Source: an uncultured Actinomycetes bacterium (GTDB lineage Bacteria; Actinomycetota; UBA4738; HRBIN12). From it: DNA of 64,000 bases. Location of the stretch: positions 65,730-129,729 of the forward strand of contig CAVSXK010000016.1 in the NCBI GenBank assembly GCA_963731925.1, in the 5' to 3' direction. Both the position numbers and the translations under genes were made by a program. The notes under the pieces were generated by a model. The model was not told where the DNA came from. It worked only from the letters and a program-made list of their open reading frames with translations, and did no database searches. Every line of letters begins with the position of its first letter. Positions within the stretch are counted from its first letter, which is position 1. Positions 11,342-64,000 of this stretch are shown piece by piece.

Positions 11342-11352
11342 GCGGATCGGAG

Positions 11353-13747: not shown

Positions 13748-16237
<2,490 letters not shown>

Positions 16238-39888: not shown

Positions 39889-39892
39889 CGCG

Positions 39893-44059: not shown

Positions 44060-44222
44060 GGACGGATGATTACACCATTACACGTAATCGTCAACCCATG
44101 CCTGGGGAATTGTGGGGCCGGGCGCCCGACGGCTCCACCTTGCTGCTGCTCGAGATGCGCTCGACGCGCCAGGGTCGAGATGGAAGGATGACAGCCGCCC
44201 GGGCTGGCCGAGATTGGGGCCG

Positions 44223-44852: not shown

Positions 44853-45471
44853 GGAAGTGCAGGGACGTTCCGTCGTCGCGGGAGCGCTTGCTCTCGCTGG
44901 AGGCGTGGCCGCGCTCGTGGGTTCGTTCCTCCCTTGGGCCGAGATCACGGCCGGGCCCTTCTCGGAGCAGGCGAGGGGCATCGACGGGTGGGAGGGCAAG
45001 GCGACGATCATCGGCGGTGCGGTCATGATCCTCGCCGGGACCCGCGTCGTCCTGGGATCGCATCAAGCCATCGCTCGGTTGCGGTCTCGTGCCGCGATCG
45101 GCGGTTCGCTGGTCGCAGGGGTCGGTATCTACACCGCGCTCACCGTGAGGGACCAGCTGTTGGACGCGGCCGCGACGCAGCTGCCGAGAGCCGAGGTCGA
45201 GGGCGCCCTGGACACCGGTCTGCTCGAGCTCTCGATCGGCGTGGGGCTCTACCTCGTGATCGCCGGGGGCGCCCAGGGGATCCTCGCCGCGGTGGTCGCG
45301 ATGGGAGCCCGAGACGAGGCCCCCGCCCCGTCCGGCGCAGGCTTGCGGGGATGGTCCAGCGGCCCGGGGGACTCTCCCGGCGGGTCGGCGACGCCTCCGC
45401 GACCCGCCGTCACGGACATCCCGCCGCCACCGGGCCGTGCGCCGAACGAGGGCGGTGGCTCGACGGGGTGA
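44845..45471 (+). CDS. 4-TM membrane protein, tandem paralogue of the preceding gene
   Basis: Shares the motifs SFLPWAE, GIDG, TVRDQLLDAAATQL and LSIGVGLYLVIAGG. GTG start overlaps the upstream stop by 8 nt. Confidence 0.65.
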   Translation: MPEEVQGRSVVAGALALAGGVAALVGSFLPWAEITAGPFSEQARGIDGWEGKATIIGGAVMILAGTRVVLGSHQAIARLRSRAAIGGSLVAGVGIYTALTVRDQLLDAAATQLPRAEVEGALDTGLLELSIGVGLYLVIAGGAQGILAAVVAMGARDEAPAPSGAGLRGWSSGPGDSPGGSATPPRPAVTDIPPPPGRAPNEGGGSTG

Positions 45472-45872
45472 ACACGCAGGAGCATCGCCTCGACACGGGG
45501 GGTCGCCGGGTCCTCGACGTGACCGAACTGGTGCTGGCGTTCTGCTCGTCCGACGGGCGCGACGGTCTGGTCAACGTCTTCGTCCCGCATGCGACGGCGG
45601 GGGTGGCGCTCATGGAGACGGGCTCGGGCTCGGAGGAGGACCTCCAGGAGCTGCTCGAGCGGATCCTGCCGCGCGACGACCGCTACCGGCACCGGCACGG
45701 CTCGATCGGGCACGGTGGCGACCACCTCCTGCCGGTCGTGGTGTCTCCCTCGCTCTCGATCCCGGTGGACGGAGGCCGGCCGTTGCTCGGCACGTGGCAG
45801 CGGGTGGTCGTCGTCGACCCCAACCGGGAAAACGACGAACGGCTCCTGCGTCTCACGTTCGTGCCGGCCTGA
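45468..45872 (+). CDS. YjbQ/UPF0047 family protein (secondary thiamine-phosphate synthase-like)
   Basis: The motifs LVNVFVPHATAGV and LLGTWQRVVVVD are present. GTG start overlaps the upstream stop. Confidence 0.8.
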   Translation: MNTQEHRLDTGGRRVLDVTELVLAFCSSDGRDGLVNVFVPHATAGVALMETGSGSEEDLQELLERILPRDDRYRHRHGSIGHGGDHLLPVVVSPSLSIPVDGGRPLLGTWQRVVVVDPNRENDERLLRLTFVPA

Positions 45873-45897
45873 CTCGGACGAGCCGCCGTCCCCAGTC

Positions 45898-46284
45898 CTA
45901 CAGGTACATCCCCGGTTGACGCTCCTTGCCGTCCGGCGATGCGGATACCGCCTGGACGTCGCGCTCCCGGAGCAGCAGGCAGTCACGGCCATCGAGCTCG
46001 ACCTCGAGCCCGGCCTGGGGCAGATACAGGATCGTGTCGCCCGTCTTCGCGGTGCGTACGTCGGGTCCGACCAAGAGCACGTCGCCCCACACGCAACGCT
46101 TCGGGGCGGGTGCGGCGGTCGCGGGGATCAGCAACCCGCTCCGAGACGTGCGTTCGCCGTTGTCGGGGTTCTCCACCACGATGCGGTCGCCGGTCAAACG
46201 GATGTCGTCGGTCCTCGTCGTGTGGGAGCGCTTCTTCCGCGCCTTCGACGGGCGGGGTTTCGAGGTCTTGGCGGCGTCGGCCAT
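45898..46284 (-). CDS. GroES-family (Cpn10-fold) protein with basic N-terminal extension
   Basis: The C-terminal 100 aa align to the GroES pattern (SGLLIP...P..G.V..VGP...GD.ILY...G.E...DG.D.LLL.E.DV.AV). The rest of the 498-aa track ORF is antisense to prmC. Confidence 0.6.
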   Translation of the reverse strand: MADAAKTSKPRPSKARKKRSHTTRTDDIRLTGDRIVVENPDNGERTSRSGLLIPATAAPAPKRCVWGDVLLVGPDVRTAKTGDTILYLPQAGLEVELDGRDCLLLRERDVQAVSASPDGKERQPGMYL

Positions 46285-46371
46285 GGCAGCGATTGTAGCC
46301 GCGCTCCCACGGGCGGCAGGGTGACGGCACCCGCCCGCGGGTACGATGCTCGCCCGAAGAAGGCGAGGCCG

Positions 46372-47235
46372 ATGAACGCGAGCAAGGTACTCTCGGACGC
46401 CGTCGCGAGGCTCAAGGCGTCGACGGCGATCGACCATTGGCAACGCGATCGCGAGGAGATCGAGGCCGACGAGCTGCTGAGCTTCGCGCTCGGCGTGGAC
46501 CGGATCGACCCCAAGGCGGATGTCCCGGCGGGCGTCCGCCGCCGTTTCGATCGCATGATCGCCCGTCGAGCCACCGGCGAACCGGTGCAGCTCATCACCG
46601 GCCATGCCGTGTTCCGGGGACTCGAGATCGTGGCGCGCCCGGGCGTGTTCGTCCCACGCGATTCGACCGAGTACCTCGCCGAACAGGCGATCCGCAGGCT
46701 CCGAGGCCGCCGGCGCCCGGTCGCCGTCGACCTCGCGACGGGCGGCGGAACGGTGGCCCTGGCGATCGCGAACGAGGTACGTGGGGTGCGCGTGTTCGGG
46801 ACGGACATCTCGCTCACCGCCGTGCGGGTCGCGAGAGAGAACGCCGCGGCGCTCCATCTCCGCGCGACGTTCATCAAGGGGGATCTCTTCGGCGGCCTGC
46901 CGTCGGAGCTCGAGGGGCGCGTCGACGTGATCACCCTTCATCCGCCGTACGTCGCTCGCGACGAGCTGCGCGAGCTCCCCGAGGAGATCCGGCGGTTCGA
47001 ACCGGTCCATACGCTCAGCGACCGCAGCCCGGACGGACTCGGGCTGGTGGGCCGGGCCGCGTCGGAAGGGCCCCGATGGCTGAGGCCGGGGGGCTGGCTG
47101 CTGATCGAGGTGAGTCCGGATCGTTCGCGCTCGGTGGCATCGGTGTTGCGGCGGAACGGGTTCGGGGACGTTCGGAGCACGATGGACCGGGGGTTCAAGG
47201 TGACCCGGGTGCTCGTCGCCCGTTGGCCGGGCTGA
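46372..47235 (+). CDS. prmC: release factor glutamine methyltransferase PrmC/HemK
   Basis: A class I SAM MTase carrying DLATGGG and the NPPY-type motif HPPY. Confidence 0.85.
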   Translation: MNASKVLSDAVARLKASTAIDHWQRDREEIEADELLSFALGVDRIDPKADVPAGVRRRFDRMIARRATGEPVQLITGHAVFRGLEIVARPGVFVPRDSTEYLAEQAIRRLRGRRRPVAVDLATGGGTVALAIANEVRGVRVFGTDISLTAVRVARENAAALHLRATFIKGDLFGGLPSELEGRVDVITLHPPYVARDELRELPEEIRRFEPVHTLSDRSPDGLGLVGRAASEGPRWLRPGGWLLIEVSPDRSRSVASVLRRNGFGDVRSTMDRGFKVTRVLVARWPG

Positions 47236-47292
47236 GCGAGCCTCGTCGTAGATGAGCGCGCCGAACCGATCCGTGCCGGTCGAAGGGGGTGC

Positions 47293-47320
47293 GGGGGGCC
47301 GGTGCCTGACCCGGCCCCCC
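47293..47320. terminator. 10-bp GC hairpin between the convergent prmC and small ORF (bidirectional terminator candidate)
   Basis: GGGGGGCCGG-N8-CCGGCCCCCC. Confidence 0.5.
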
Positions 47321-47414
47321 GCTCGAGAGGGGGCGCGTTCCTCTCGTTGGCGGTTGGAACCGTACCGTGGGTCTGTGACGACCCGGCGGCGCATCGGTGT
47401 CGGCGCCGTGAACG

Positions 47415-47585
47415 CTAGTGCTTGATCGGCCAGGTGGCGGCCGCGAGCGCGGCGCGTCCGATCCTCCGGGTGATGCCCCGCGACTCCATGGCCTTGCCCT
47501 TGCGTGTCGAACGGGCCAGACGCGCGGCCTCGGCCTCACGAACGCGATCGGCGATCTGGTGCCGGGCCATCTCTCCGCTCAGCAT
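47415..47585 (-). CDS. 56-aa basic hypothetical protein
   Basis: A strong GAAGGAGG RBS 6 nt upstream of the ATG. The ORF is MLSGEMARHQIADRVREAEAARLARSTRKGKAMESRGITRRIGRAALAAATWPIKH. Confidence 0.5.
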   Translation of the reverse strand: MLSGEMARHQIADRVREAEAARLARSTRKGKAMESRGITRRIGRAALAAATWPIKH

Positions 47586-47851
47586 CTCCGAACCTCCTTC
47601 TGGAACCTTCGCGCACGGTACGTCCGCGCCGTGGTCGCGAGCGGTGACGTCGCTCACGACCGCGGGGTGACGTCCGTCACGTTGCACGCCGGCCGCTCGA
47701 GGTCGAAGATGCGGCCCGTGATCCCGTCGATTCGCGCTCGGAGCGCGCCTGTTCGTGGCCGTCCTCGTCTGGATCGCTGGCCTCCCCGGGACCGGCTGGC
47801 GGCGCAGTCCGCTTCGCCGAGCCCTAGCGCGGTCCGAGCGTCGCGGGCCAG

Positions 47852-50582
47852 GTGACCGGCGCCCTCGCGGCCGGCTCCAGGCTCACCATCCGTGTCGACG
47901 CGACGATGCCGGGTGGCTGGGAGGCCCTCCATCTCGTGGAGGTGGCCATCGTCTCCGGCGAGCGAGGAGCTCGAGCGGACCTGCGCTTCGACATCGAGGA
48001 CAACAAGCTGACGATCGGCGAGCAAGACGTCATCGTGGGAACGGGTGCGGTCGCTACTGGCGAGTACCTGCGCGTCGGCGGCGCGGACGTCGTCGTGACC
48101 ACCGGCGGCGCGAACCTCTCCTTCGAGGTGGACGCCCGCGTCGTGAAGACCATTCCCGAGAGCTCGCGGTTCGAGCTGAGCGTCGTGGACGATCTCGGGG
48201 CGTCGGCCGAGGTCCTCGAACGCTGGCGGAGCCCGAGGGCGGCGGGATCACCTGGGGGACGGTGGTCGCCCTCATCGCCGCCGCGCTGTTCGCCGGAGGG
48301 TTCGTCGGGAACATGTTCGCGTCCAAGCGCCGGCCACCCGCACGAGCGTCGGTCTACGACGCGGTCCAGCGCCGGCTCGACGATCAGGCGGGCAGTCGGC
48401 CCCGCGCCGATGAGCCGGAGCGTCCGAGCGGGCGTCTACGCGGCTCGTCGAGGACTCGATGGAACGGCCCGAGCGCCAGCGACGGCCGTGGGCTGTGGGA
48501 TCGGCTCGCATGCTGGTCGACCCGACGGAGTTCCGGCCGAAGCTCGCTGACGACATCGAGATGAAGGAGTTCCAGCTACGCTGGGGCAACGACTACGTGA
48601 TGATCGCGAACCCGCGGGATCTCCTGCACTACCGGCTCGAGGCCCGGTGAGATCGAGCTGCTGCCCGCTGATGGACGGCACGCGCACGGTCAAGGAGATC
48701 GTCGTCGAGCGGTTCCGCGAGTCCGGCGACATGGAGCTGTCGGGCGTCGCCGACCTGGTGCGAACGCTTCGGGTCGGCAACTTCCTCGACGGACGCCGTA
48801 CGTCGACGTTCGACGCATGCGTCGAGCGGTCGATCGACACCGCCGAACGCCGCCGCGAGGCCCGGGAGTTCGCGAAGACGCTATCGATCGAATGGAGAGG
48901 GGCGCACCGGCTGGTCAAGTGGCTCTACGGCCACTGCCTGCGGTGGGTCTTCATCCCGGCGGTCGGGGCCGTCGTGTTGCTCGGCGGCGGTCGTCGGCTT
49001 CTTCGCGTTCTGGTCCTCGTACCAGGACGGCACGTTCTCGATCCCGGCGGGTCGCTCGCCGCGAATCGCTCATCCTGCTGGGATCGACTACTTCCTGATG
49101 TTCATGCACGAGCTCGGGCATGCGGTCGTCCTCGTGCACAACGGGCGACGGATCAAGAGCGCCGGGTTCATGATCTACTTCGGATCGCCGGCGTTCTTCG
49201 TCGACTGCTCGGACGGCCTGATGATGGACCGGGGCAAGCGGATCGTGCAGTCGTTCGCCGGCCCGTTCGCGGAGCTCGTCCTCGCCGGCTCGCCTCGGCG
49301 ATCGTCGCCTGGTCGTTCCCGGAGTGGTCGCTCGCGCCGAGCCGTTCTACAAGTTCGCGGTCCTGAACTACTTCGTGATCTTCATGAACCTGATCCCGCT
49401 GCTCGAGCTCGACGGCTACTGCATCCTCGCGGACCTGATCCAGGTCCCCGACCTGCGCCGAAGTCGCTCGCAGTTCATCCGCCACGACCTGTTCCACAAG
49501 ATCCGGCGGCGGGAGCGCTTCACCAAGCAGGAGTCGGGCTCGGCCTGTACGCGATCGTCGGGCGTCGCGTTCACGATCTTCTCCCTCTACTGGTCGGTCT
49601 ACTTCTGGGAGACGGTGTTCGGTGGGCTCGTCGAGCCGGCTGTGGGACGGAGGGTCACCGGCACGCGGTCCTCCTCGTCGCCTGGCGCTGTTCATGACCG
49701 GCCCGCTGATCCGCGGGCTGATCACGCTCCTCCGCTCGCTGTGGCCGGGCGGCGCGAGCGTCTGTCGCGCGATCCGGTTCCGGCTCGAGACCGGGTGGCG
49801 GGTGGAGGCAGCCGAGCTGATCGACGCGCTCCCGATGTTCGAGGACATCCCGGTGGACGTGCTCTGCACGAGATCGCCGGGCCGCGTCCGGCTCCGAGAT
49901 CCTCGGCTGGCAAGTCGGTCTTCCGCCAGGGCGACCGACCCGACGCGTTCTACGTCGTGCGCAAGGGCGTCCTCGAGGTGGTCGAGGAGGATCCGAGAAC
50001 GGGCAAGGAGCGCTCGATCCGGACGCTCGGCCGAGGCGAGTCGTTCGGGGAGCTCGGGCTGGTGACCGGCGCGCCGCGGGCCGCGACCGTGCGCGCCGTG
50101 GAGGACGCCGAGGTGTTCGAGGTGGACAAGGGCGACCTTCGACATCTGCTCGCCGACAAGCTCCAGCTGCCCGACTTCGAGCCGACGCTCCAACAGGTCG
50201 CCGAGCTCCGAGAGCTGCCCTGCTTCGCCTCCCTGGGGACCGACGCAGCTATCGGAGCTGCTCGATCGGGGCGCATGGCGTGAACGTCGCTCCGGGCGAG
50301 CAGATCATCGAGCAGGGCGAGGAAGGGGATTCGTTCTATGCGATCTGGTCCGGCCAGGTCGACGTCGTCAAGGACGAGAGGCTGGTGACGACGATCGGCC
50401 CCGGATCGTATTTCGGCGAGGTCGCCCTGCTGATGGACGTGCCCCGGACGGCAACCGTGGTGGCACGCACGCCCGCCGCGGCTCTTCCGGCTGGACCGGG
50501 AGGGTTCGAGCAGGCTGGTCGCTGGAGCGTTCCGGCGGGGGACGCTCGATCCTCGCACGTCGGTCGGACGTCGCAGCACTGA
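47852..50582 (+). pseudogene. multiply frameshifted gene(s): N-terminal domain + TM, peptidase M50 (site-2 protease, HELGH) core, two cNMP-binding domains
   Basis: Recognisable protein segments succeed one another in frames 2, 1, 0, 2, 0, 2, 1, 0/2, 1, 0. Examples are the HELGHAVVL zinc site (frame 0 at 49098), FGELGLVTGAPRAATVRA (frame 1) and FGEVALLMDVPRTATVVA (frame 0). At least 10 frame changes occur in 2.7 kb. Confidence 0.55.
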
Positions 50583-53311: not shown

Positions 53312-53596
53312 CTACTCGGCCGACGGGCTTCGGCCCTCGGGAGGTGAGGCGGGCAGGAGCCGCTCGAGCGTGGCGAGCGCGGCCGCGAGCGCATCTGCTC
53401 GCGAGACGCCGCCGGCCACGCTCCCGCCCGTCGCCGAGCCGAGGAGGAAGGCCGCGAGCGGCGTGATCTTGCGTTCGACCCGGTGCGCGACCTCCCGGGA
53501 GACTCCGAGGAGCCGCGTGGTCTCGCTTTCGGACAGGGGATCTTCTCCGAGCGCCGCTGCCAGCCGATCGATCCAGTCCTCCATGGATGCCTCCAT
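53312..53596 (-). CDS. small hypothetical protein immediately upstream of moaA
   Basis: 94 aa, high third-position GC, and its stop lies 14 nt before the moaA start. It is the only credible part of the long antisense track ORF. Confidence 0.55.
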   Translation of the reverse strand: MEASMEDWIDRLAAALGEDPLSESETTRLLGVSREVAHRVERKITPLAAFLLGSATGGSVAGGVSRADALAAALATLERLLPASPPEGRSPSAE

Positions 53597-53677: not shown

Positions 53678-54922
53678 GTGAGCGGCATCCGCGCCGCCGT
53701 CGTGACCGTTTCCGACGGCGTCACCCAGGGAACGCGAGCCGATGGCTCCGGCGACGCCGCCGAGGCGATGCTGCGCGAAGCCGGGTTCGACGTCGCGGCT
53801 CGCGCCGCGGTCCCCGACGAACGACCGGCCATCGAGACGGTCCTGCGGGACCTGGCGGACCAGCGCGGGTTCGCCCTGGTGGTCACGACGGGCGGCACCG
53901 GTTTCGGGCCTCGAGACGTGACGCCGGAGGCGACGCGGGCCGTCCTCGAGCGGGACGCTCCAGGATTGGGCGAGCTCATGCGCCGTGAGGGGACGCGACA
54001 GACCCCGATGGCCGCCCTGTCGCGTGCGGTGGCGGGGTCGCGCGGCGGCACGGTGATCGTGAACCTCCCCGGGAGCCCGAGGGGTGTCGGCGAGAGCCTC
54101 CGAGCGCTGCTGCCGGTCCTGCCCCATGCGGTCGAGCTCCTGGGCGGCTCGACCGGCGAGCACCACACCGGCCACGCCGATCACAGGAACGACACCCCGG
54201 CCGCGACGACGACCGATCGAGCAGAGGCGTGGGTGCAGGCCAAGGCGGTGAAGGTGCACGGTTCGCCGCCGTGCAAGGTGGGGAACGAGATGCGCATCGT
54301 TCCGGGGGGAGCGGTGCACGGGACGCTGGGATGCGCGGAGTTCGACGAGGCCGCGGTTCGCGACGCCGCCGAGATCCTCGCGTCGGGTGAGCCGGCGACG
54401 CGCGCGTATCACCACGAGCAGGGGGACGTCGAGGTCTACCTCGAACCGCATCGTCCGGCTCCGGCCCTGGTCGTCGTCTCGGCGACCGACGTGGCTCGCG
54501 AGCTCGCGCGTCTCGCACCCGGGCTCGGCTTCTCACCCGTCCTGGTCGAGACGCGCCGCGAACGCGTCACGCCCGCCGACGCGAGCTCGATGCCCGTCGT
54601 CCACGAGCTCGCCGATCTGGAGATCGATGCGGAGTCGCGGGTGGTGTTCACCGATCACGACGCTCCGGGGATCGCCGCGGCGCTCGCCCTCGTGCTCCGC
54701 TCGCCGGCACGGTTCATCGGGGTCATGGGGAGCCGGCGACACGTCGGACCCTACGTCGACGAGCTCCGAGCGATGGGGTTCGGCGACGACGACCTCGCCC
54801 GCATCCGGTCGCCGCTCGGTCTGGATCTCGGCGGCCGCCGGCCGGGGGAGATCGCGCTGTCGATCGCGGCGGGGTTGGTGGCCGACGCGAACGATCGCGA
54901 CGCCGGGTGGATGGACCGGTGA
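53678..54922 (+). CDS. MogA/MoaB-domain fused to XdhC/CoxI-family domain (molybdenum cofactor insertion/maturation)
   Basis: The N-terminal MogA-like block is IRAAVVTVSDG...VVTTGGTGFGPRDVTPEAT...LPGSP. The C-terminal half is XdhC-like, including a Rossmann subdomain. GTG start at 53678. Confidence 0.75.
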   Translation: MSGIRAAVVTVSDGVTQGTRADGSGDAAEAMLREAGFDVAARAAVPDERPAIETVLRDLADQRGFALVVTTGGTGFGPRDVTPEATRAVLERDAPGLGELMRREGTRQTPMAALSRAVAGSRGGTVIVNLPGSPRGVGESLRALLPVLPHAVELLGGSTGEHHTGHADHRNDTPAATTTDRAEAWVQAKAVKVHGSPPCKVGNEMRIVPGGAVHGTLGCAEFDEAAVRDAAEILASGEPATRAYHHEQGDVEVYLEPHRPAPALVVVSATDVARELARLAPGLGFSPVLVETRRERVTPADASSMPVVHELADLEIDAESRVVFTDHDAPGIAAALALVLRSPARFIGVMGSRRHVGPYVDELRAMGFGDDDLARIRSPLGLDLGGRRPGEIALSIAAGLVADANDRDAGWMDR

Positions 54923-55701
54923 GCGGGCCTCGAGGCGCGAAGGCGCCGACGCAGCCCCGCTACGTCCGGCGGAACCGCGCGAGCTGGAACCGCGAGGCGG
55001 ACGAGTACCAGCGCGACCACGCCTCCCAGCTGAACCGTTTCGACCGCCCCGCCTGGGGGGTCTGGGAGATCCCGGAGTCCGAGCTTCGCGTGCTGGGCGA
55101 CGTGGCCGGGATGGACGTGCTGGAGTTCGGGTGCGGCGGCGGGCAGTGGTCGATCTCGCTGGCCCGACTCGGGGCCCGTCCGGTCGGGCTGGATCTGTCG
55201 ATCCGTCAGCTCTCGCACGCGCTCCGGCTGATGGAGGGCGCATCGGAACGGTTCCCGCTCGTCAACGCCAACGCCGAGCGGACGCCGTTCGCAGACGAGC
55301 GCTTCGATCTCGTCTTCTGCGATCACGGGGCGATGAGCTTCGCGGATCCGTACCTCACACTGCCCGAGGTGGCTCGGGTGCTCCGGCCGGGTGGTCGGTT
55401 CGCGTTCAACATCGCGAGCCCGCTCATCTGGCTGTGCTGGGGCGACGGTGAGGAGCCGCCCGGGCCGGAGCTCGTCCGCAGCTACTTCGGCCTGCGCCGA
55501 GAGACGTGGGACTCGGTCGAGTTCCAGCTGCCGTACGGGGACTGGATCCGGCTGTTCCGGTCGAACGGGTTCGAGGTCCTCGACCTGATCGAGCTCCGGC
55601 CGCCGGCCCGCCCGCGGACCACGTATCCGGATTTCGCTCCCCTCGCGTGGGCTCGCCGATGGCCCGGCGAGAACATCTGGAAGCTCCGGAAGCTCGGATG
55701 A
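54907..55701 (+). CDS. class I SAM-dependent methyltransferase
   Basis: Motif I VLEFGCGGG and post-I DLS are present. Confidence 0.8.
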   Translation: MDGPVSGPRGAKAPTQPRYVRRNRASWNREADEYQRDHASQLNRFDRPAWGVWEIPESELRVLGDVAGMDVLEFGCGGGQWSISLARLGARPVGLDLSIRQLSHALRLMEGASERFPLVNANAERTPFADERFDLVFCDHGAMSFADPYLTLPEVARVLRPGGRFAFNIASPLIWLCWGDGEEPPGPELVRSYFGLRRETWDSVEFQLPYGDWIRLFRSNGFEVLDLIELRPPARPRTTYPDFAPLAWARRWPGENIWKLRKLG

Positions 55702-57122
55702 GCACGGACGGGACGGCGCCGCGCGCGGGACGCGGGCGCTCGGGGATGCGGACGGGGCTGGCCGTCGGTCTCGCCGTCGCGGCCCTGGTGTGGAGCGTCG
55801 CGGCCCTGCCACCGGTCCGTGGCCAGGAGGATCCGCGACCGAACGTGATCCTGGTCGTCACCGATGACCAGCCGGCCGACTCGATCCCGAACCCGTACGC
55901 CGTGATGCCGTTCCTCCAGCGCCGAGCGCTCGACCCCGACGACCACTGGGTCGTGTTCGAGAACGGCTACGTGAACACGCCGCTCTGCTGTCCGTCTCGG
56001 GCCACGATGCTCACGGGGCGGTTCGCCCACCACACCGGCGTTCGAGACAACGAGGACGGAGTCTTGCTCGACGAGACCTCGACGCTCGCCACCTGGCTGC
56101 ACGACGAGGGCTACCACACGGGACTGGTCGGCAAGTACCTGAACCGGTATCCGTTCGAACGCACGGCGTACGTGCCCGCCGGATGGGATCGCTGGTGGGG
56201 ACGGCAGTACGGCCCGGCGACGAGCCTGTACTTCGACTACACGCTGTTCGAACAGGATCATCTCGTCCCGTACGGTCACACCGACGCCGACTACGCGACC
56301 GACGCCCTCGCCGACAAGGCGACCCAGTTCGTTCGCGAGGCGCCGGCCGATCAGCCGTTCTTCCTGTGGTTCGGTCCGACCGCTCCCCACCCACCCTGGA
56401 CCGCGGCGCCGAGGGACGAGGGGGCGTTCGCCGGCCTCGTGGTTCCGACGCCGCCCTCGGTCGGAGAGGCCGATGTGACCGACAAGCCGGCCTGGGTCCG
56501 GGACCTCGCCCCGCTCGACGCGGCGGACCGAACGGCGCTCCGCGCCAGCCATCGTCGTTCGTACCAGGCGTTGCTCGCGGTCGACGACGCGCTCCGCGAG
56601 ATCCTGGCCGCGGTTCGCTCGCGGGGTGAGCTCGCCGACACCGTCGTGATCTTCACGTCGGACAACGGTCTCGCGTTCGGCGAGCACCGGTGGACCAAGA
56701 AGAGCTGTCCGTACGAGGCCTGCATCGGCGTGCCGTTCCTGATCCGGATGCCGAGCGTGGCGCACCGGACGGACCCGTCGATCGTCTCGGCCGCCGACAT
56801 CGCGCCGACGATCGCCGAGCTCGCCGGGGCGACGCCGCCGGCGACGTTCGACGGTGTCAGCCTGGTCCCGCTGCTCTCCACCGGGAGCCGTGCCGGGCTG
56901 CCCGGTGAGGTCTTCGCCGAATGGGTGGGCGACCAGACGATCCCGGCGTGGTGGGAGGTCCGAACGAGGCGATTCGCCTACATCGAGCTCGCGACGGGCG
57001 AGCGCGAGCTCTATGCCCTGCGGGACGACCCCTACGAGCTGACGAACGTGGCCGACGATCCGGCGTTCGAGGCCGAGGTGTCGCGGCTCGCGGCGACGCT
57101 CGAGACGTACCGGGGCGCGTGA
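55698..57122 (+). CDS. Cys-type sulfatase (arylsulfatase family) with signal peptide
   Basis: The sulfatase signature LCCPSRATMLTG (C-x-P-x-R with the formylglycine cysteine) and the N-terminal block VVTDDQ are present. Confidence 0.9.
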   Translation: MSTDGTAPRAGRGRSGMRTGLAVGLAVAALVWSVAALPPVRGQEDPRPNVILVVTDDQPADSIPNPYAVMPFLQRRALDPDDHWVVFENGYVNTPLCCPSRATMLTGRFAHHTGVRDNEDGVLLDETSTLATWLHDEGYHTGLVGKYLNRYPFERTAYVPAGWDRWWGRQYGPATSLYFDYTLFEQDHLVPYGHTDADYATDALADKATQFVREAPADQPFFLWFGPTAPHPPWTAAPRDEGAFAGLVVPTPPSVGEADVTDKPAWVRDLAPLDAADRTALRASHRRSYQALLAVDDALREILAAVRSRGELADTVVIFTSDNGLAFGEHRWTKKSCPYEACIGVPFLIRMPSVAHRTDPSIVSAADIAPTIAELAGATPPATFDGVSLVPLLSTGSRAGLPGEVFAEWVGDQTIPAWWEVRTRRFAYIELATGERELYALRDDPYELTNVADDPAFEAEVSRLAATLETYRGA

Positions 57123-58612
57123 AGCGAACCGCGGCGGTCGCCCTCGGGGCGCTCCTGGTCCTGCGTCCGGCCGGCGCGAACGGGCGGGCCGAGGCGGCAG
57201 CGGCCCCCGATCGTCCCCCGGACATCGTCCTCATCGTGACCGACGATCAGCGCTTCGATTCCCTGTGGGCGATGCCGGTCCTGTCCGAGCGCCTGGAGGC
57301 TCGGGGCGTGACGTTCCCGGACGCGTTCGTCGTGAACCCGCTCTGCTGCCCGAGCCGGGCCAGCATCCTCACGGGCAACTACTCGCACACCACCCTCGTC
57401 TACCGGCAGGTCCCGCCGTTCGGCAGGTTCGAATGGTTCGACGACGGCTCGACGCTCGCGACGTGGCTGCACGATGCCGGCTACCGAACAGGGCTCTTCG
57501 GCAAGTACCTCGATGGTTACCAGCACTCGGCGGTGACCGGCTACGTCCCACCCGGCTGGGACCGGTGGGTGGCGTTCGTGCGCTCGGCGCAGGTGGATTA
57601 CACCCTGACGATCGACGGGGCGCTCCGCGAGTTCGGACATGGTCCGGACGACCACGCGACGGAGGTGTTGGCGGACGAGGCCGTCGCGTTCGTGCAGGAC
57701 ACGACCGGACCGCTGTTCCTCGAGCTCGCCACCTCGGCGCCGCACGCCCCGGCGATCCCCTCGCCCGGGGACGAGAGCTCGTTCGCGAGCCTGCCGCCGG
57801 CGCGGCCGCCGTCCTTCGACGAGGCGGAGGTCTCCGATAAGCCGGCGTGGGTCCGAGACCTCCCGCCTCTCACCCCATCGCAGGAAGCGGCGATCGACGC
57901 GTTCCGGGCCGACCAGTACCGATCGCTCCTCGGAGTCGATCGTGCGCTCGGCAGGATCCTCGACGCGCTCGAACGGGCCGGACGGCTCGAGAACACGTTG
58001 ATCGTGTTCACGTCGGACAACGGCATCCTGCACGGCGAGCACCGATGGACCAAGAAGGAAGCTCCCTACGAGGAGGCGATCCGCGTGCCGCTCGTGATGC
58101 GATGGGACGCCGCGGAGTGGACGCCGGGGACCGAGCTCCCGGGCGTGCTCGCGCTGAACATCGACCTCGCGCCGACGATCGCCGACGCCGCGGGGGTCGC
58201 GCACCCGCCGACCGACGGGCGCAGCCTCCTCCCGGTCCTGGCCGGCGACCGGTCGTCGACGCGTTCGGACTTCCTCATCGAACACATGGAAGGGGAGAAT
58301 CCGGTCCCCACGTTCTGCGCCGTGCGCTCGGAGCGTTGGACGTACGTCCGGTACTCGACGGGCGAGGAGGAGCTCTACGATCTCGCGGCGGACCCGTTCG
58401 AGCTCGAGAACGCGGCCGGGGCTCCCTCGATGCGACCGGTACTCGAGGAACGGCGAGCGCGGCTGCGGACGCTGTGCTCACCGGTCCCGCCCGGCTACGA
58501 GGATCGCTCCGGGACCGGCGTCCCGCTCGCCGTCGGCGTGCTCGTGGCACTGGTGCTGCTCGAGGCATTCGCATCGCGTCGCGCGCGCGGCTCCGAGGAA
58601 AGGGCCCGGTAG
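57119..58612 (+). CDS. Cys-type sulfatase paralogue with C-terminal hydrophobic anchor
   Basis: Carries LCCPSRASILTG. It is collinear with the previous gene and shares the blocks TLATWLHD.GY.TGL.GKYL...GWDRW. A C-terminal TM-like segment LAVGVLVALVLL is present. GTG start overlaps the upstream stop (GTGA). Confidence 0.9.
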   Translation: MKRTAAVALGALLVLRPAGANGRAEAAAAPDRPPDIVLIVTDDQRFDSLWAMPVLSERLEARGVTFPDAFVVNPLCCPSRASILTGNYSHTTLVYRQVPPFGRFEWFDDGSTLATWLHDAGYRTGLFGKYLDGYQHSAVTGYVPPGWDRWVAFVRSAQVDYTLTIDGALREFGHGPDDHATEVLADEAVAFVQDTTGPLFLELATSAPHAPAIPSPGDESSFASLPPARPPSFDEAEVSDKPAWVRDLPPLTPSQEAAIDAFRADQYRSLLGVDRALGRILDALERAGRLENTLIVFTSDNGILHGEHRWTKKEAPYEEAIRVPLVMRWDAAEWTPGTELPGVLALNIDLAPTIADAAGVAHPPTDGRSLLPVLAGDRSSTRSDFLIEHMEGENPVPTFCAVRSERWTYVRYSTGEEELYDLAADPFELENAAGAPSMRPVLEERRARLRTLCSPVPPGYEDRSGTGVPLAVGVLVALVLLEAFASRRARGSEERAR

Positions 58613-58623
58613 GCTAGCCGCCC

Positions 58624-60243
58624 ATGAGCACCCCCTCCGGACCCGGGTCGAGGGTTCCGATCCCGAAGAAGCGGTTGCGGCTCTCCCGCCGGCGGGCCGC
58701 GCGGCGTCGAGGGTTCGCGGCGTTCCTCGGCGTGGTGGTGGTCGTCATCGCGGCGCTCGGCTGGGCGGCGACGCGGGACGGGAACGAGCGCGCCGCGACC
58801 GGGCCTTCCGGGGCGACCTCGCCGGCGCCGGGCGCGAGCGGCGGAACGGGCAACGGTGCCTCTCCCAGCCCCGGAGGCGTGACGATCATCCCGGGTGAGA
58901 CGCCGATCGAGCACGTCGTGTTCATCGTCAAGGAGAACCGGACGTTCAACAACTACTTCGCGACGTACCCGGGCGCCGAAGGTGCGACCGAGGGCGGGAC
59001 GATCAGGTGCACCGAGGACGGGTGCCGCGACGGGCCCGTCGTCCGGCTCACCGAGGGGCCCGACATCTATCCGCACGACCTGACCCACTGCTTCCGCTGC
59101 GGACTCACGGCGATCAACGGCGGCAAGATGAACGGCTTCAACCGGATGAACGGGCCGATCCCGCAGTCGGAGAACGCCGACCTGTACGGCGCCGACATGA
59201 CCGGGTACTCCTATCTGGATCGCACCGGGGTCCCGAACTACTGGGCGTACGCCGACCGGTTCGTCCTTGCCGACCACTTCTTCACGTCGATGTACGGCCC
59301 GACGCTCCCCGAGCACCTGTACGCGGTCGCCGCCCAGGCGAACCTCATCGTCGACAACAAGTCCACCACCGATCACGAAGGGAACTATTGCGACGACGCT
59401 ACCGAGGACGCGACGCGGTTCGTCCCCCGCGAGGTGCGTCAGCACGAGGAGGAGATCCTCCGTCTCGAACGCCGCATCACGGAGAACGGCTCGAACGTGT
59501 ACGACATCGCGGACTTCTGGGGAAGCATCCGCCTGTGCTTCGACATCGAGGTGCTGCCCGACCAGCTCGAGGAGGAGGGCATCTCGTGGAAGTACTACGC
59601 GAACGAGAACGCCTGGATGAACGTCCTGCAGATGATCCGCCACGTCCGGTACGGGCCGATGTGGAAGAAGGTCCAGCCGCCCGAGACCTTCGTGAAGGAC
59701 GTCAAGCAGGGCGAGATGCCGGCCGTGTCGTGGATCATCCCGTCCGAGTCCTACAACGAGCACCCCGGTGCGGGGAAGAGCACCTGTGCAGGCGAGAACT
59801 GGACCGTGCACCAGATCAACACGATCATGCGCAGCGAGTACTGGCGCTCGACGGCGATCGTGGTGGTCTGGGACGACTTCGGAGGGTTCTACGACCCGGT
59901 GGAGCCGCCTCAGTTCGACGTGATGGGCCTCGGGCCGCGGACCCCCGCACTGATCATCAGCCCGTACGCGCGCCAGGGCTCGAACCCCGACGGCGGCTCC
60001 GTGGACCACACGACCTACGAGTTCTCCTCGGTGCTCGCCTTCATCGAGCAGCTGTTCGGGCTCGACCCCATGACCGAACGGGATGCCGAGGCCGACCCGC
60101 TCTCGGGCGCGTTCGACTTCGCGAACCCGAGGTTCGACAAGCTCGTCCTGCCGCTCCGGGACGACTGCCCGTACGGCACCTCGGCCTCGCAGTTCCTCGC
60201 GTCCTGGCCGTTCCTGCGGACGATCGGAAGCCCGTTCGACTAG
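58624..60243 (+). CDS. phosphoesterase-family protein (PlcC/AcpA-like phospholipase C/acid phosphatase), N-terminal membrane anchor
   Basis: The family motif HVVFIVKENRTFNNYF and the downstream VVWDDFGGFYDPV block are present. Confidence 0.85.
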   Translation: MSTPSGPGSRVPIPKKRLRLSRRRAARRRGFAAFLGVVVVVIAALGWAATRDGNERAATGPSGATSPAPGASGGTGNGASPSPGGVTIIPGETPIEHVVFIVKENRTFNNYFATYPGAEGATEGGTIRCTEDGCRDGPVVRLTEGPDIYPHDLTHCFRCGLTAINGGKMNGFNRMNGPIPQSENADLYGADMTGYSYLDRTGVPNYWAYADRFVLADHFFTSMYGPTLPEHLYAVAAQANLIVDNKSTTDHEGNYCDDATEDATRFVPREVRQHEEEILRLERRITENGSNVYDIADFWGSIRLCFDIEVLPDQLEEEGISWKYYANENAWMNVLQMIRHVRYGPMWKKVQPPETFVKDVKQGEMPAVSWIIPSESYNEHPGAGKSTCAGENWTVHQINTIMRSEYWRSTAIVVVWDDFGGFYDPVEPPQFDVMGLGPRTPALIISPYARQGSNPDGGSVDHTTYEFSSVLAFIEQLFGLDPMTERDAEADPLSGAFDFANPRFDKLVLPLRDDCPYGTSASQFLASWPFLRTIGSPFD

Positions 60244-61587
60244 TCAGTCGTCGGGGAACCGCGGGCCGACGCAGTCGGTCCGCAGCGGCAGCGGCTCGGG
60301 GGGTCGTGGGGCCTGCTCGAAGTCGAACGCCGAGAGCAGGGGCGTCGCGTCCCGGTCCCGATGCGTGAGCTGGGAGAGCCGCCAGTTGTCCTCGACGAAC
60401 CGAAGCACGCTGGAGAACTCTCCCAGCTCGTGGGTCACGAACCCCTCCTTCGCGTACGGGCTGATGACGAGCAACGGCACCCGGATCCCGAAGCCGAACT
60501 CGTCGACCTGCGGCGGCGGGACGTGATCGTAGAAACCACCGTAGTCGTCCCACGTGATGAAGATCGCGGTCGAGTCCCAGTCCGGACCCTCCATCACCGC
60601 GTTCACGATCTCGGTCGTCCAGTTCTCACCGTGGCACATGCTGTACTCGGGGTGCTCGGAGAGCTCGAACCGGGGTGTCACCCACGTGACGGGCGGCAGC
60701 AGCCCCGACCGGGCCTGCTCGGCGAACCCGTCGACCGGGAAGATGTGGGACCGCCAGTACTCCTCGTCCTCGCGGATGTGGCGAACGGCGTCGTACGCCG
60801 ACCACAGGTATCCGTTCTGGTACTGGGTCGCCGCGTAGTACGCCCACGGGATCTGCGCCTCGGTCAGCAGGTCGCCTTCGGTGAGGAAGTCGAAGCACGG
60901 GGGAACCTTCTTCTCGATGCCCTCGCTGTCGACGACCACGGCGAAGGCGTCCTCCATCGAGTCGCAGCCCCAGGCCTTGAACAGGCCGGTGTCGCGGTGG
61001 CGCTCGCGCAGCTCGTCGATGTCCTGATACACGTTCTCGTGCGTTCCGCCCGACTGGGCGGCGATCGTGTAGAGGTGGTTCGGGAACGACGGCCCCTGCG
61101 CGCTCGCGAAGAACTTGTCGCCCAGCACGAAGGACGATGCCCACGTCCAGTAGTTCGGGAGGTCCCCCGGCTGGAACTGCGTGTAGGCGTATTCGTCGGC
61201 CGTCTCGCTGATCGTCGCGAACCCGTCCATCTCGCCCTCGTTCCAGGCCTGGAGCGCGCAGTCGTAGCAGTGCCTGATGTCCATCTCGAGTCGGTCGACC
61301 GCGGGTGTGAGGGTTCGAGGCTCGCCCCGGTCCATCCCGACCGTGACGCCATCCGCGCCCGGGAACAGGCCGAACATGTTGTCGAAGGTCCGGTTCTCCT
61401 TGATCACGAACACGACGTGCTTGATCGGCGTCGCCGTCTCGAACGCTTCCGCATCGACGGGCGTCGGAGCGACCCCGTAGTCGAGCGGTGGGAGCGGGGT
61501 CCACTCGGGGCCGTCGTCCCCGCACGAGCTGCCCACCACCGCGAACAGCAGGATGAGGGCGAGCGCGCGCAGGGGTGCCTTCGACAT
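60244..61587 (-). CDS. phosphoesterase-family lipoprotein (PlcC/AcpA-like), paralogue of the convergent neighbour
   Basis: A signal peptide with a lipobox-like VGSSC, the motifs [17 protein letters not shown] and [13 protein letters not shown]. Its stop codon abuts the stop of the plus-strand paralogue. Confidence 0.85.
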
Positions 61588-61689
61588 CGGTGTGCGACCC
61601 TATCGCACCTTCCGTTGGAGACCGTTGCGAGATCGCCGTCGTACCGCGATGATGCGACGGGACCGGTTCACGAGTCGAAGGAGGACGAC

Positions 61690-62169
61690 ATGCGACGGTT
61701 CGTCACGGTGGTGTGGGTCACGCTCGCGGGTGTGCTCGCGGCGGGACTCACGAGCGCGTTCGCGGCGACCGGGATCGCCCAGGAGGAGACGGTCGTCCTG
61801 GGCGAGCACACGTTGAAGGGCCGGAACCTCGATCTCGTGGGCGAGGCCAACGACTTCCGGCCGGGCGACCGGTACATCTTCCGGAGCGAGCTCACCGACG
61901 AGCAGGACGCGGTCGTCGGTCACCTGTACGTCGATTGCTCCGTGCAGTTCGGCAAGCGGGACTCCTGCTCGCAGATCTACGACATCCCCGCTCGCGGGAC
62001 CGTGACGGCCGAGGGGCTGATCCCGGTCGCCGAGCTCCACCTCGGGGGCACGTGGGTCCTCGCGATCACGGGCGGCACCGGTGATTTCGAGAACGTCCGA
62101 GGGTCCGTCACGGTCGAAGTCGTCGACGACAGGGGCAACAGCGAGCACACGTTGCATCTGCTGCCCTGA
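61690..62169 (+). CDS. secreted small beta-barrel protein (dirigent/allene-oxide-cyclase-like?)
   Basis: A signal peptide, the ITGGTGDFENVRG motif, and a GAAGGAGG RBS. The family call is tentative. Confidence 0.5.
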   Translation: MRRFVTVVWVTLAGVLAAGLTSAFAATGIAQEETVVLGEHTLKGRNLDLVGEANDFRPGDRYIFRSELTDEQDAVVGHLYVDCSVQFGKRDSCSQIYDIPARGTVTAEGLIPVAELHLGGTWVLAITGGTGDFENVRGSVTVEVVDDRGNSEHTLHLLP

Positions 62170-62204
62170 CGGAGCCGGTTCGGTAGTGGTTCGGCGACAC
62201 GCGG

Positions 62205-63620
62205 TCAGGCGGGCGCGAGCCGCATGCCCTGCTGCTCCGCCATGAACTCGCGCCAGTAACGCTTGCCTTCCTCGGGCAGCGTGGTGATGGGGTCGTAGTA
62301 CGGGTACTCGCGGGAGAGCGCCTCGGGATCGTCGTACTCGATCCCGGTCCGGTAGTTCTTCCGCCAATACGAGATGCCCTTGACCCGGTCGTACGTGTTG
62401 AGCATGTGCACCCATCGCTTGCCGACGAACGGCACGTCGCACACGAACCTCGGGGTCGCGAACCCCGGCAGGTAGCCCATGACCGCGAACTGCAGCTCCT
62501 GCGCCTCCCACACGGCGAGCCGCCAGTGTTCGCTGTTCGGGATCATGTCGCACATGTAGAAGTAGTAGGGCATGACCTTCGCGTGATCCAGGAGCGTGAA
62601 ACAGAGCTCGAGGATCTGGTTCGGCGTCGTGTTCACGCCCCGCAGGAGCACCCCCTGGTTCCGAACGTCTCGGTACCCCATGTCCAGCAGCTTGCGAACC
62701 GCCGATCCGACGAGCGGTGTCACCTGCTGGGCGGCGTTCACGTGGGTGTGGATCGCCACGTCGACCTGCCGTTCGTGCGCGCGCCCCGCGATCGCCTCGT
62801 AGCCTTCGAGCACGTCGTCCTGCAGGAAGTGCTGCGGGATGCCCATCAGCCCCTTCGTCGCGATCCGAACCTCGCGCACGTTCTCGATGTCGAACAGGCC
62901 GAACAGCCACTCTTGGAGCCGCTTGATCGGGACGTTGGCCATGTCGCCGCCCGAGACGACCACGTCGCGCACGCTCGGGGTCCTGCGCAGGTAGTCGAGC
63001 ATCGCGTCCCAGCGCTCGTTCTGCTTCATCTCGAACTTGTACTTCAGTACCTGGGACGTGTCGTTGCCGACGAGATCCATGCGGGTGCAGTGCCCGCAGT
63101 ACTGAGGGCACGTGGGGATCAGCTCCGCCAGCACCTTGGTCGGGTAGCGGTGTGTGAGCCCCTCGACGGCCCACATGTCCGCTTCGTGCAGGGAATCGCG
63201 AGCGGCCATCGGGTGCGACGGGAACTCCTCGTCCCGGTCCGACAGCGCCGGGGCCATGTAGCGCCGAACGGGGTCGGCCCACAGGTCGGTCTCGTCCATC
63301 GTGTTGATCATCTGGGGCGGGATCAGCATCGACATCGTCGCCCGCTCCTGCTGGTCGCGTTCGATGTCCGCGTACAGCTCGTCGGAAAGGTGGTTGCCGA
63401 GCGCGCGCTTCAGCTCGACGAGGTTCTTGATCGTGTGGGCCCTCTGCCACTGGGCGGACTCCCACTGCTCCTTCGTGACGTCAGCGAACCCGGAGAGACG
63501 CGTCCAGTCGGGCTCGACGTACTCGCGCTTCAGCGGGTACTCGAAGGGTTGGTCGGCGGCGTGGGCGTGACCGGCCTCGTGCTTGGGGCGTTCTGCGGTG
63601 TGGTCGCTTCGTTCGCTCAT
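62205..63620 (-). CDS. KamA-family radical SAM aminomutase (lysine/glutamate 2,3-aminomutase-like)
   Basis: The radical-SAM motif CPQYCGHCTR, a Gly-rich SAM region VVSGGD, and a PLP-binding-lysine region are present. The start is at ATG 63620; the upstream part of the track ORF is non-coding. Confidence 0.85.
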   Translation of the reverse strand: MSERSDHTAERPKHEAGHAHAADQPFEYPLKREYVEPDWTRLSGFADVTKEQWESAQWQRAHTIKNLVELKRALGNHLSDELYADIERDQQERATMSMLIPPQMINTMDETDLWADPVRRYMAPALSDRDEEFPSHPMAARDSLHEADMWAVEGLTHRYPTKVLAELIPTCPQYCGHCTRMDLVGNDTSQVLKYKFEMKQNERWDAMLDYLRRTPSVRDVVVSGGDMANVPIKRLQEWLFGLFDIENVREVRIATKGLMGIPQHFLQDDVLEGYEAIAGRAHERQVDVAIHTHVNAAQQVTPLVGSAVRKLLDMGYRDVRNQGVLLRGVNTTPNQILELCFTLLDHAKVMPYYFYMCDMIPNSEHWRLAVWEAQELQFAVMGYLPGFATPRFVCDVPFVGKRWVHMLNTYDRVKGISYWRKNYRTGIEYDDPEALSREYPYYDPITTLPEEGKRYWREFMAEQQGMRLAPA

Positions 63621-63785
63621 CCGTGACTCCGTATCCGCGTCGGGCCCGCGCCCGGTGGTCTTCAGCGAAGCCGGATGAACCGGCTCTCGGAGTGAATGAT
63701 ACCCGCTGTTCCTCCGGTAGATCGGTCTTGAAACCGAAGGATATTCGGCCAGGACAGGCCCGGGATCAGGGAGTTCGAACCGGGT

Positions 63786-64000
63786 CAGCGGCGGCCGCGC
63801 GGGCCGCCCCGGCCGCCGTCGCGCCCGCCCATGCGTGGACGCCGCTCGAACCGGCCCTGGTCCTTCTCGGGCCGCGGCAGCCGAAGACGCAGGGGGGTGG
63901 GTCCGCTCCGTTCGTACCGAACCCAGATGTGATCGATCTCGCGCCGGCGCTCGACCTCGCGCCATCCGTCGGCGAGCAGGTGCTTGTGCCGCCCGGCGGC
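63786..64000 (-). CDS. 3' end of a gene with an RGG/Arg-rich C-terminal tail (possibly a DEAD-box helicase or other RNA-binding protein), partial
   Basis: The open frame ends ...ERRPRMGGRDGGRGGPRGRR* at 63786. It is truncated by the window edge. Confidence 0.35.

Follow-up and report, generated by a model that had tools for sequence, protein, structure and literature searches.

We analysed a 64-kb window, the whole stretch of DNA considered here, from an uncultured soil Actinomycetota lineage, concentrating on a block at positions 55698–63620 and on its neighbours inside the window. The block encodes two Cys-type S1 sulfatases (Sulf1 and Sulf2), two phosphoesterases (Pe1 and Pe2), a small exported protein and a KamA-like protein, and a previous sequence-only reading had described it as an accessory cluster or island with an unusual duplication of both enzyme types. 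Comparison with related genomes reveals not an island but a stable, ordinary piece of chromosome that the lineage shares. As a general explanation we lean, from sequence comparison, towards surface-tethered ester hydrolases encoded at the meeting point of two convergent transcription units in a conserved chromosomal neighbourhood. The four hydrolases, all of the alkaline phosphatase superfamily, would be tethered to the external side of the cytoplasmic membrane: Sulf1 by a signal or anchor segment, Sulf2 by a C-terminal tail anchor in addition to its signal peptide, Pe1 by an N-terminal RR-type signal anchor and Pe2 as a lipoprotein. Their physiological role would be the hydrolysis of extracytoplasmic phosphate and sulfate esters, with Pe1 and Pe2 as a core of the lineage and the sulfatases as an optional addition.

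The genes and intervals of the block and its borders are as follows.

55698–57122, plus strand: Sulf1, Cys-type S1 sulfatase (PF00884, 178.2 bits, E=3e-52; SGSH_C)
57119–58612, plus strand: Sulf2, Cys-type S1 sulfatase (PF00884, 146.1 bits, E=2e-42; SGSH_C)
58624–60243, plus strand: Pe1, phosphoesterase (PF04185, 211.8 bits, E=2e-62)
60244–61587, minus strand: Pe2, phosphoesterase and predicted lipoprotein (PF04185, 224.8 bits, E=2e-66)
61588–61689, no strand: divergent intergenic region of 102 bp between Pe2 and the small exported protein, from sequence reading
61690–62169, plus strand: small exported all-beta protein of 159 amino acids (AOC_like, PF18678, 26.3 bits against a cut-off of 25.9)
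62205–63620, minus strand: KamA-family radical S-adenosylmethionine (SAM) and pyridoxal phosphate (PLP) aminomutase-like protein of 471 amino acids (NCBIfam below cut-off; 2A5H, E=1e-40)
63785–64000, minus strand: 3′ part of sm96, encoding a basic hypothetical protein of 96 amino acids; the translation is the sm96 C-terminus, truncated by the window end and complete in a related contig (L003:9546–9836)
53678–54922, plus strand: MoaB/MogA-XdhC fusion gene, the first of the co-directional unit that reaches Pe1 (Pfam MoCF_biosynth, XdhC_CoxI and XdhC_C; NCBIfam)
54919–55701, plus strand: class I SAM-dependent methyltransferase of 260 amino acids (Methyltransf_11/25, E=1e-20; NCBIfam matches generic only)

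Two predicted units converging on Pe1 and Pe2

The plus-strand genes are packed tightly. The moaB/xdhC stop overlaps the methyltransferase start by GTGA (54919–54922) and the methyltransferase end overlaps the Sulf1 start by ATGA (55698–55701), so that the stretch at 55.6 kb, previously taken as intergenic, is occupied by the methyltransferase gene. Sulf1 and Sulf2 overlap in turn by GTGA (57119–57122), and 11 nt separate Sulf2 from Pe1. Unit A would thus run from moaB/xdhC through the methyltransferase, Sulf1 and Sulf2 to Pe1, all its junctions being 4-nt overlaps or the 11-nt spacer, while unit B, on the minus strand, would consist of sm96, kamA and Pe2, with the opposite-strand gene of the small beta-protein inserted between kamA and Pe2 in this sublineage. 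The genes of each unit are presumably co-transcribed. The units meet where the stops of Pe1 and Pe2 abut, the TAG of Pe1 ending at 60243 and the reverse-strand TGA of Pe2 occupying 60244–60246; the abutting stops had been noticed correctly, but the phosphoesterase genes lie tail to tail and not head to tail.

Conservation of the neighbourhood and age of the duplications

Is the block an island? A Pe2 profile scan over one genome per GTDB species yielded 80 loci, which were compared with the window proteins by tblastn. Pe2 orthologues were taken at 60% identity or more (35 loci), and a locus was counted as informative when its contig extends far enough. The order adenine deaminase, transketolase, sm96, KamA and Pe2, convergent to Pe1, sulfatase (where present), methyltransferase, MoaB/XdhC and MoaA, recurs in around 35 species-level genomes of uncultured Actinomycetota. 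Of 27 informative loci, 26 have Pe1 convergent to Pe2, with stops no more than 57 nt apart in 21 of these; of 29, 28 have KamA, with sm96, upstream of Pe2 in the same orientation. In relatives the positions of the neighbouring transketolase, adenine deaminase, methyltransferase, MoaB/XdhC and MoaA genes are likewise unchanged, as is the strand of moaB/xdhC. The possibility, raised beforehand, that these genes are scattered in relatives is therefore not borne out.

The composition of the block tells the same story. The G+C content is around 70% across the window (range 0.67–0.72), that of the block equals its flanks, and the G+C content at third codon positions (GC3) of its genes falls within the range of the window; no integrase, transposase or tRNA gene borders the block, and the window as a whole is free of mobility genes. 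Since composition matches the flanks, mobility genes are absent and the backbone is shared by around 35 species together with flanking housekeeping genes, the terms 'accessory cluster' and 'island' do not apply. What does vary is sulfatase content, with both types in 7 species, only the Sulf1 type in 9, only the Sulf2 type in 1 and none in 4, and the small beta-protein; these are the only genes of the block that behave as accessory ones.

Relatives possess separate Sulf1- and Sulf2-type orthologues and separate Pe1 and Pe2 orthologues, and between paralogues the identity is constant (sulfatases, about 42%; phosphoesterases, about 37%). It follows that both duplications are older than the lineage, and that neither pair arose by recent tandem duplication. 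The nearest paralogues of Pe2, 58–65% identical, are found at other loci of the same metagenome-assembled genomes (locus pairs L008/L060, L007/L068, L010/L070 and L011/L065), which also removes the ground for calling the duplication unusual. Among the species compared, the divergence of Pe1 and Pe2 keeps pace with that of transketolase and adenine deaminase, while that of the sulfatases is faster.

These results bear directly on the view that the block was acquired horizontally as an accessory island scavenging phosphate and sulfate esters and was built by recent local duplications. Exported esterases are typical accessory functions, and the species-to-species variation of the sulfatases and the small protein would fit such an origin. 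However, the matching composition, the borders free of mobility genes, the Pe pair and backbone conserved throughout the lineage and the age of both duplications speak against it, and we give it almost no credence.

In three ENA contigs of the same strain (L001, L002 and L004), the transketolase, adenine deaminase and Sulf2 genes are split or shortened in some and intact in others that are 97–100% identical; this looks like assembly indel errors and not real pseudogenes.

Pe1 and Pe2: phosphoesterases of AcpA-like architecture

Pe1 and Pe2 share 37% identity (E=5e-82), in agreement with their earlier description as paralogues on opposite strands, and cover positions 1–355 of the 356 of the PF04185 profile, whose gathering cut-off is 23 bits. 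They had been labelled PlcC/AcpA phosphoesterases, a label that holds only as far as an AcpA-like architecture goes. AcpA of Francisella tularensis (2D1G) is the best solved relative (Pe1, E=3e-29; Pe2, E=9e-34, or 9e-42 with a profile), and like it Pe1 and Pe2 consist of a single domain without the C-terminal domains of phospholipase C (PLC). Identity to AcpA is low, and with TIGR03397 scores of 145–154 bits against a cut-off of 362.75 the likeness is one of architecture, membership not being established. Moreover, Pe1 differs from AcpA in having a Thr instead of a Ser nucleophile and in its family-specific TLPEH and YDPV motifs, and both proteins differ from it in being membrane-tethered and in carrying extra Cys pairs, such as HCYDC. 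The phosphocholine-specific PLCs (Pseudomonas aeruginosa PlcH/PlcN and Mycobacterium tuberculosis PlcA-D; TIGR03396) and plant NPC4 (8HAV) have the same PF04185 catalytic domain, with a Thr nucleophile as in Pe1. Pe1 and Pe2, at 447–539 amino acids against about 700, lack their C-terminal DUF756/CTD domains, PF04185 being the sole Pfam domain, and score 127–147 bits with TIGR03396 against a cut-off of 580. Because these domains are missing and the PLC cut-off is missed so widely, the label 'PlcC' is unjustified, while 'PF04185, AcpA-like architecture' is, at the level of domain and profile comparison, a justified description.

A further relative, compared by description, is SapM of M. tuberculosis, which like Pe1 and Pe2 is an actinobacterial, exported, single-domain PF04185 protein. 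At 299 amino acids it is much shorter than they are, and it belongs to a pathogen, its substrates being phosphoinositides of the host. The same Ser/metal mechanism has been shown for SapM by mutagenesis of equivalent residues (PMC6635428). In the literature, nothing relevant was found on the newer PLC structures 8K3G, 8YK5, 9GY2 and 9GYE, and nothing specific on PF04185 in Actinobacteria.

Are the catalytic residues in place? The catalytic set of AcpA comprises E43, N44, S175, D386 and D387 plus H106, H287, H288 and H350 (PMC6635428), and that of NPC4 comprises E23, N24, D76, H79, T158, H264, D299 and E300 (PMC9837106). When both sets were mapped by phmmer and profile alignments to 2D1G and the PLC structures, Pe1 and Pe2 matched AcpA E43, N44, H106, S175, H350, D386 and D387 and had equivalents of all eight NPC4 residues, the nucleophile aligning as Thr in Pe1 and Ser in Pe2. 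The sequence-only reading thus survives the check on catalytic residues that was proposed with it. The residues are kept in 31 Pe1 and 37 Pe2 orthologues; in an alignment of 16 Pe2 orthologues (A1), the set E64, N65, D103, H106, S167, H312, D347 and D348 is invariant, and the Pe1 motifs KENRTFN, DLTHC, GPTLPEHLY, NEHP and WDDFGGFYDPV are conserved in 31 orthologues. By analogy with AcpA and NPC4, a Ser (Pe2) or Thr (Pe1) activated by metal or carboxylate would attack the phosphoester, a phospho-enzyme would form and a His-activated water would release the phosphate.

We also considered Pe1 as a dead pseudoenzyme, given its N-to-E and H-to-P changes beside conserved motifs, and rejected this idea since the changed positions lie outside the defined catalytic residues. 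The variants GPTLPEHLY and GGFYDPV are conserved in 29–31 of 31 orthologues, which marks Pe1 as a constrained enzyme and not a decaying copy.

Both proteins carry the membrane attachments previously proposed, an anchor in one and a lipobox in the other. The N-terminus of Pe1 has a hydrophobic segment (Kyte-Doolittle hydropathy, KD, 2.52) after RRRAARRRGF, followed by a Gly/Ser/Pro linker, and the lipobox of Pe2 is VGSSC, its Cys22 being at least 90% conserved in alignment A1. Across Pe1 orthologues this N-terminus (58624–58790 in the window) displays a strongly conserved cytoplasmic PGPGSR(V/L)P(I/V)PR...RRRAARRRGF ahead of the transmembrane (TM) segment and a variable Gly/Ser/Thr/Pro linker after it. 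The RRxF of Pe1 could be part of a twin-arginine translocation (Tat) signal anchor. Bacterial PLCs are Tat-exported, and the RR-type signal of Pe1, like those of distant Pe2 orthologues, recalls such export; two of the latter (L041 and L042) display a clear RRSFL Tat motif together with a lipobox.

Sulf1 and Sulf2: predicted formylglycine sulfatases without a nearby maturase

That Sulf1 and Sulf2 are translationally overlapping, paralogous Cys-type sulfatases is upheld. They are 43% identical (E=8e-99), fully cover the 301 positions of the PF00884 profile (gathering cut-off 25 bits) and share the formylglycine motif CCPSRxxxLTG, as CCPSRATMLTG at 55986 in Sulf1 and CCPSRASILTG at 57344 in Sulf2. 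The metal/sulfate motifs VTDDQ and TSDNG..GEHRWTKK of Sulf1 align to TDDH and TSDQG..GEHGW of 5G2V, and both are retained in Sulf2. Sulf1 has an N-terminal hydrophobic 19-mer, by hydropathy a signal or anchor. Sulf2 has a signal peptide and, as had been noted, a C-terminal hydrophobic anchor, a 19-mer of KD 2.32 followed by a basic tail, which is kept in its orthologues. In these orthologues, as in the window (58480–58612), the C-terminus consists of a conserved CxP(V/P)PPG(F/Y)xDR, a TM segment and an Arg-rich tail; the layout resembles that of a sorting signal, but there is no LPXTG, the PGF is not immediately at the TM start and the tail matched none of the NCBIfam C-terminal sorting models.

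The top PDB matches are 5G2V, 7P24 and 7EBP, 7P24 being of the mucin-desulfating sulfatase type. The first, the N-acetylglucosamine-6-O-sulfatase BT4656 of Bacteroides thetaiotaomicron, is the best or near-best solved relative (Sulf1, E=4e-45; Sulf2, E=3e-39) and shares with Sulf1 and Sulf2 the Sulfatase plus SGSH_C architecture, the formylglycine motif and the metal ligands. However, the alignment falls into two separate parts of low identity, and in contrast to BT4656 the window locus has no glycan-utilisation context, being devoid of glycoside hydrolases and transporters, and encodes membrane-anchored enzymes of a monoderm host. Since the nearest solved relatives are N-acetylglucosamine-6-O-sulfatases, Sulf1 and Sulf2 most likely act on sugar sulfate esters.

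A maturase with its gene at some other place would convert the Cys of CCPSR into the formylglycine used to hydrolyse the sulfate ester. The earlier observation that neither a formylglycine-generating enzyme (FGE) nor an anaerobic sulfatase-maturating enzyme is visible nearby extends to the entire window and 10 kb beyond. By motif scan (GN[VA]WEW plus RGGS), no FGE gene stands beside the sulfatases in any relative among the related loci, and SPASM-type radical SAM enzymes are likewise missing from the window, from the adjoining 10 kb and from the related loci (1.34 Mb), MoaA and the KamA-like protein being the radical SAM enzymes of the window. The KamA-like protein was itself considered as the missing anaerobic maturase and discarded, for it aligns to lysine 2,3-aminomutase (LAM) over around 360 residues, contains hardly any Cys besides those of its one CxxxCxxC, and is kept in species devoid of sulfatases.

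The KamA-like protein: a neighbour of the esterases

The assignment of the 471-residue protein to the KamA family is supported by structure-level and profile matches, the latter below cut-off. The best NCBIfam models are lys_2_3_AblA (187 bits) and TIGR00238 (178.7 bits; cut-off 199.2), both falling short, and no Pfam family, including Radical_SAM and LAM_C, was found at E≤0.01. The protein aligns with LAM of Clostridium subterminale (2A5H, E=1e-40) over residues 43–403. Its CPQYCGHC, present in 119 of 120 homologues, aligns to C125, C129 and C132 of LAM, SGGD is present in 120 of 120, and D293 and D330 are aligned too, while a conserved Lys (FVGK) stands one position before K337 in the ungapped alignment. 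We take Asp293 and Asp330 of LAM to bind the lysine epsilon-amine and Lys337 to bind PLP. Compared with the clostridial enzyme, the KamA-like protein has about 40 extra N-terminal residues and departs from it towards the C-terminus: the two sequences align no further than LAM residue 338, and the C-terminal zinc-binding cysteines of LAM have no counterpart, the last 110 residues containing at most one Cys in 115 of 120 homologues. It has no hydrophobic segment by hydropathy and is thus assigned to the cytoplasm. From these alignments it is probably a cytoplasmic aminomutase for lysine or another basic amino acid. Nine metagenome contigs, the longest of 337 kb, encode an identical protein, and all its close homologues come from uncultured Actinomycetota.

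Two related loci suggest that kamA is in the neighbourhood of the esterases without belonging to their function. In another lineage (L088), the genes downstream of a 79%-identical homologue encode, in order, an MttB-family protein, a class-III aminotransferase and a second MttB (8001–14309), a context that hints at an amino-acid or amine catabolic role of this KamA subfamily. In a third lineage (L087), the backbone is kept without Pe2. Because of these two contexts, we consider the KamA-like protein a neighbour and not a partner of the esterases, probably unlinked to them in function, in contrast to its earlier treatment as part of one unit.

Might the whole neighbourhood nevertheless serve a single pathway, in which KamA (making beta-lysine), the methyltransferase, the molybdenum cofactor (Moco) genes and the esterases act on one metabolite, with both convergent operons co-regulated? 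The stability of the neighbourhood in around 35 species is consistent with this, as is the arrangement of kamA and Pe2, which are co-directional and in nine loci only 41–104 bp apart (41–161 bp in 11 loci in a wider tally). But the synteny extends just as well to transketolase, adenine deaminase and MoaA, and conserved order thus does not imply shared function. Furthermore, the kamA–Pe2 gap takes unrelated genes, KamA is cytoplasmic whereas the esterases are exported, and the contexts of L088 and L087 point the same way. A single integrated pathway is therefore highly improbable.

The sm96 gene lies immediately upstream of kamA in almost every relative and is called in all source contigs. Its product is very basic, with a Gly/Arg-rich C-terminal tail; no family was found for it, and its 65 homologue clusters are all hypothetical proteins of this lineage.

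Scavenging or envelope?

The chemistry of the four hydrolases, formylglycine sulfatases on the one hand and Ser/Thr phosphoesterases acting through a phospho-enzyme on the other, is well founded on conserved motifs and residues. Their physiological substrates are far less certain. Scavenging is the default assumption for such enzyme families. However, Pe1 and Pe2 occur throughout the lineage and evolve as slowly as housekeeping enzymes, transketolase diverging at least as fast, and they are membrane-tethered, which counts against scavenging alone.

The same facts can be read in favour of remodelling of the cell's own envelope, in which the substrate of Pe1 and Pe2, and perhaps of the sulfatases and the methyltransferase too, would be a polymer or lipid of the cell that contains phosphate or sulfate, nutrient release being secondary. 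It could be a phosphoglycolipid, a sulfoglycolipid or a wall glycopolymer of the teichoic-acid-like kind. Free secretion is not the rule among the enzymes, three or four of them being tethered, and the surroundings of the Pe2 paralogues are suggestive: in 25 of 46 non-syntenic loci, several of them from the same genomes, the paralogue lies directly downstream of a family-4 glycosyltransferase (GT4) gene (L068:6133–15387, L060:223–5236, L065, L069, L070, L072 and 19 more). Also present in these clusters are two or three other GT4 genes, a gene for a WecG/TagA-family transferase and one for a 42–49% identical paralogue of the window methyltransferase; the Pe2 paralogues there are lipoproteins with the lipobox AAAC. 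This association favours an endogenous envelope substrate over scavenging. On the other side, no glycosyltransferase, flippase or LytR-CpsA-Psr (LCP) gene is present at the window locus, paralogue functions can differ, and the sulfatases are dispensable, being absent from 4 of 21 species. We know of no PF04185 member that acts on wall polymers, nor, to our knowledge, has an envelope polymer role been described for the AcpA/PLC superfamily. Envelope remodelling is thus a tentative alternative. A more specific proposal, that the PF04185 paralogues (Pe1, Pe2 and the third, glycosyltransferase-cluster lipoprotein) are core membrane-tethered enzymes of an envelope glycopolymer or glycolipid and not scavenging phosphatases, and that the Pe1/Pe2 pair and the tail-anchored sulfatase would accordingly have as their substrate a phosphorylated or sulfated surface polymer made by the cell itself, appears to us rather unlikely.

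Returning to surface-tethered hydrolysis of extracytoplasmic esters by enzymes of two convergent units, several observations weigh against it besides the placing of the closest Pe2 paralogues in glycosyltransferase clusters. Scores with all NCBIfam equivalog models lie well under the cut-offs, and substrate specificity is in consequence not transferable. The scan for the FGE motif was negative in the window, in the 10 kb beyond and in the 1.34 Mb of related loci (88 loci), which leaves sulfatase maturation unproven, and AcpA H287 and H288 fall in a region that cannot be aligned with Pe1 and Pe2. No transporter, regulator or Pho box in the window ties the genes to nutrient limitation. Finally, operon status is read from gene spacing, neither promoters nor terminators being detectable by a consensus scan, which gave nothing above shuffled sequences and is uninformative at 70% G+C.

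What does the block then teach? An apparently unusual island turns out to be an ordinary, lineage-conserved neighbourhood of well-known enzyme families, and the value of this result is mostly negative. It adds divergent members of the AcpA/PLC phosphoesterases, the S1 sulfatases and KamA from an uncultured soil actinobacterial lineage. These proteins score too low with the specificity-level models for labels such as 'phospholipase C', 'alkaline phosphatase family' or 'lysine 2,3-aminomutase' to be secure. Soil surveys that use such genes as markers of organic-phosphorus or organic-sulfur mineralisation would count genes that are here core and membrane-tethered. The association of PF04185 paralogues with glycosyltransferase clusters is the one lead worth keeping, and if it reflects function, PF04185 would acquire a new envelope role.

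The variable slot, regulatory signals and window surroundings

The small exported protein has a signal peptide by hydropathy, as the sequence-only reading had it, although its start needed correction to 61690, where GGAGG precedes the ATG by 6 nt. It occurs in only 4 of 29 informative related loci. A single-sequence AlphaFold2 (AF2) model has eight strands at low confidence (pLDDT 51), and from this low-confidence model Foldseek returned no match at E≤0.001 and only weak matches resembling carbohydrate-binding modules (CBM). Elsewhere the space between kamA and Pe2 is taken up by a gene for a solute-binding protein, S15 peptidase, CN hydrolase, additional PF04185 protein or sulfatase, or by an unknown gene, the occupied loci being L013, L015, L017, L024, L025, L028, L030 and L036–L038. 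As unrelated genes fill it in different species, this space is a variable, recurrent insertion slot, and the small beta-protein is a sublineage-specific insertion in it.

The check for a Pho box at 61.6 kb, which had been proposed, gave no tandem pair. With the unit GKTCAYYYRSG and one mismatch, a Streptomyces-type pattern that may not be the lineage's own, 84 matches were found against 67±7 expected, and neither the intergenic region at 53.6 kb nor that at 61.6 kb contained any arranged in tandem. Rfam detected no match in 61588–61689, no Moco riboswitch ahead of moaB/xdhC and no small RNA. The methyltransferase that follows moaB/xdhC has no hydrophobic segment by hydropathy and is thus assigned to the cytoplasm.

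The remainder of the window is housekeeping DNA, with genes for GroEL, acetyl-CoA synthetase, NAD-dependent glutamate dehydrogenase (NAD-GDH), trehalose metabolism and MoaA. Between moaA and the divergent moaB/xdhC, and conserved there in the source contigs, lies a DUF6457 gene (53312–53584, minus strand), whose product may be an uncharacterised Moco-related accessory protein. Just upstream of GroEL, an open reading frame (ORF) at 39632–40474 on the plus strand contains RTX calcium-binding nonapeptide repeats (HemolysinCabind, E=1e-19); several ORFs overlap here and its coding status is uncertain. In about 5 kb at 44000–49200, the choice of frame by GC3 is ambiguous and most candidate ORFs have no Pfam match, the sole recognised domain being a PrmC-like methyltransferase at 45523–47235.

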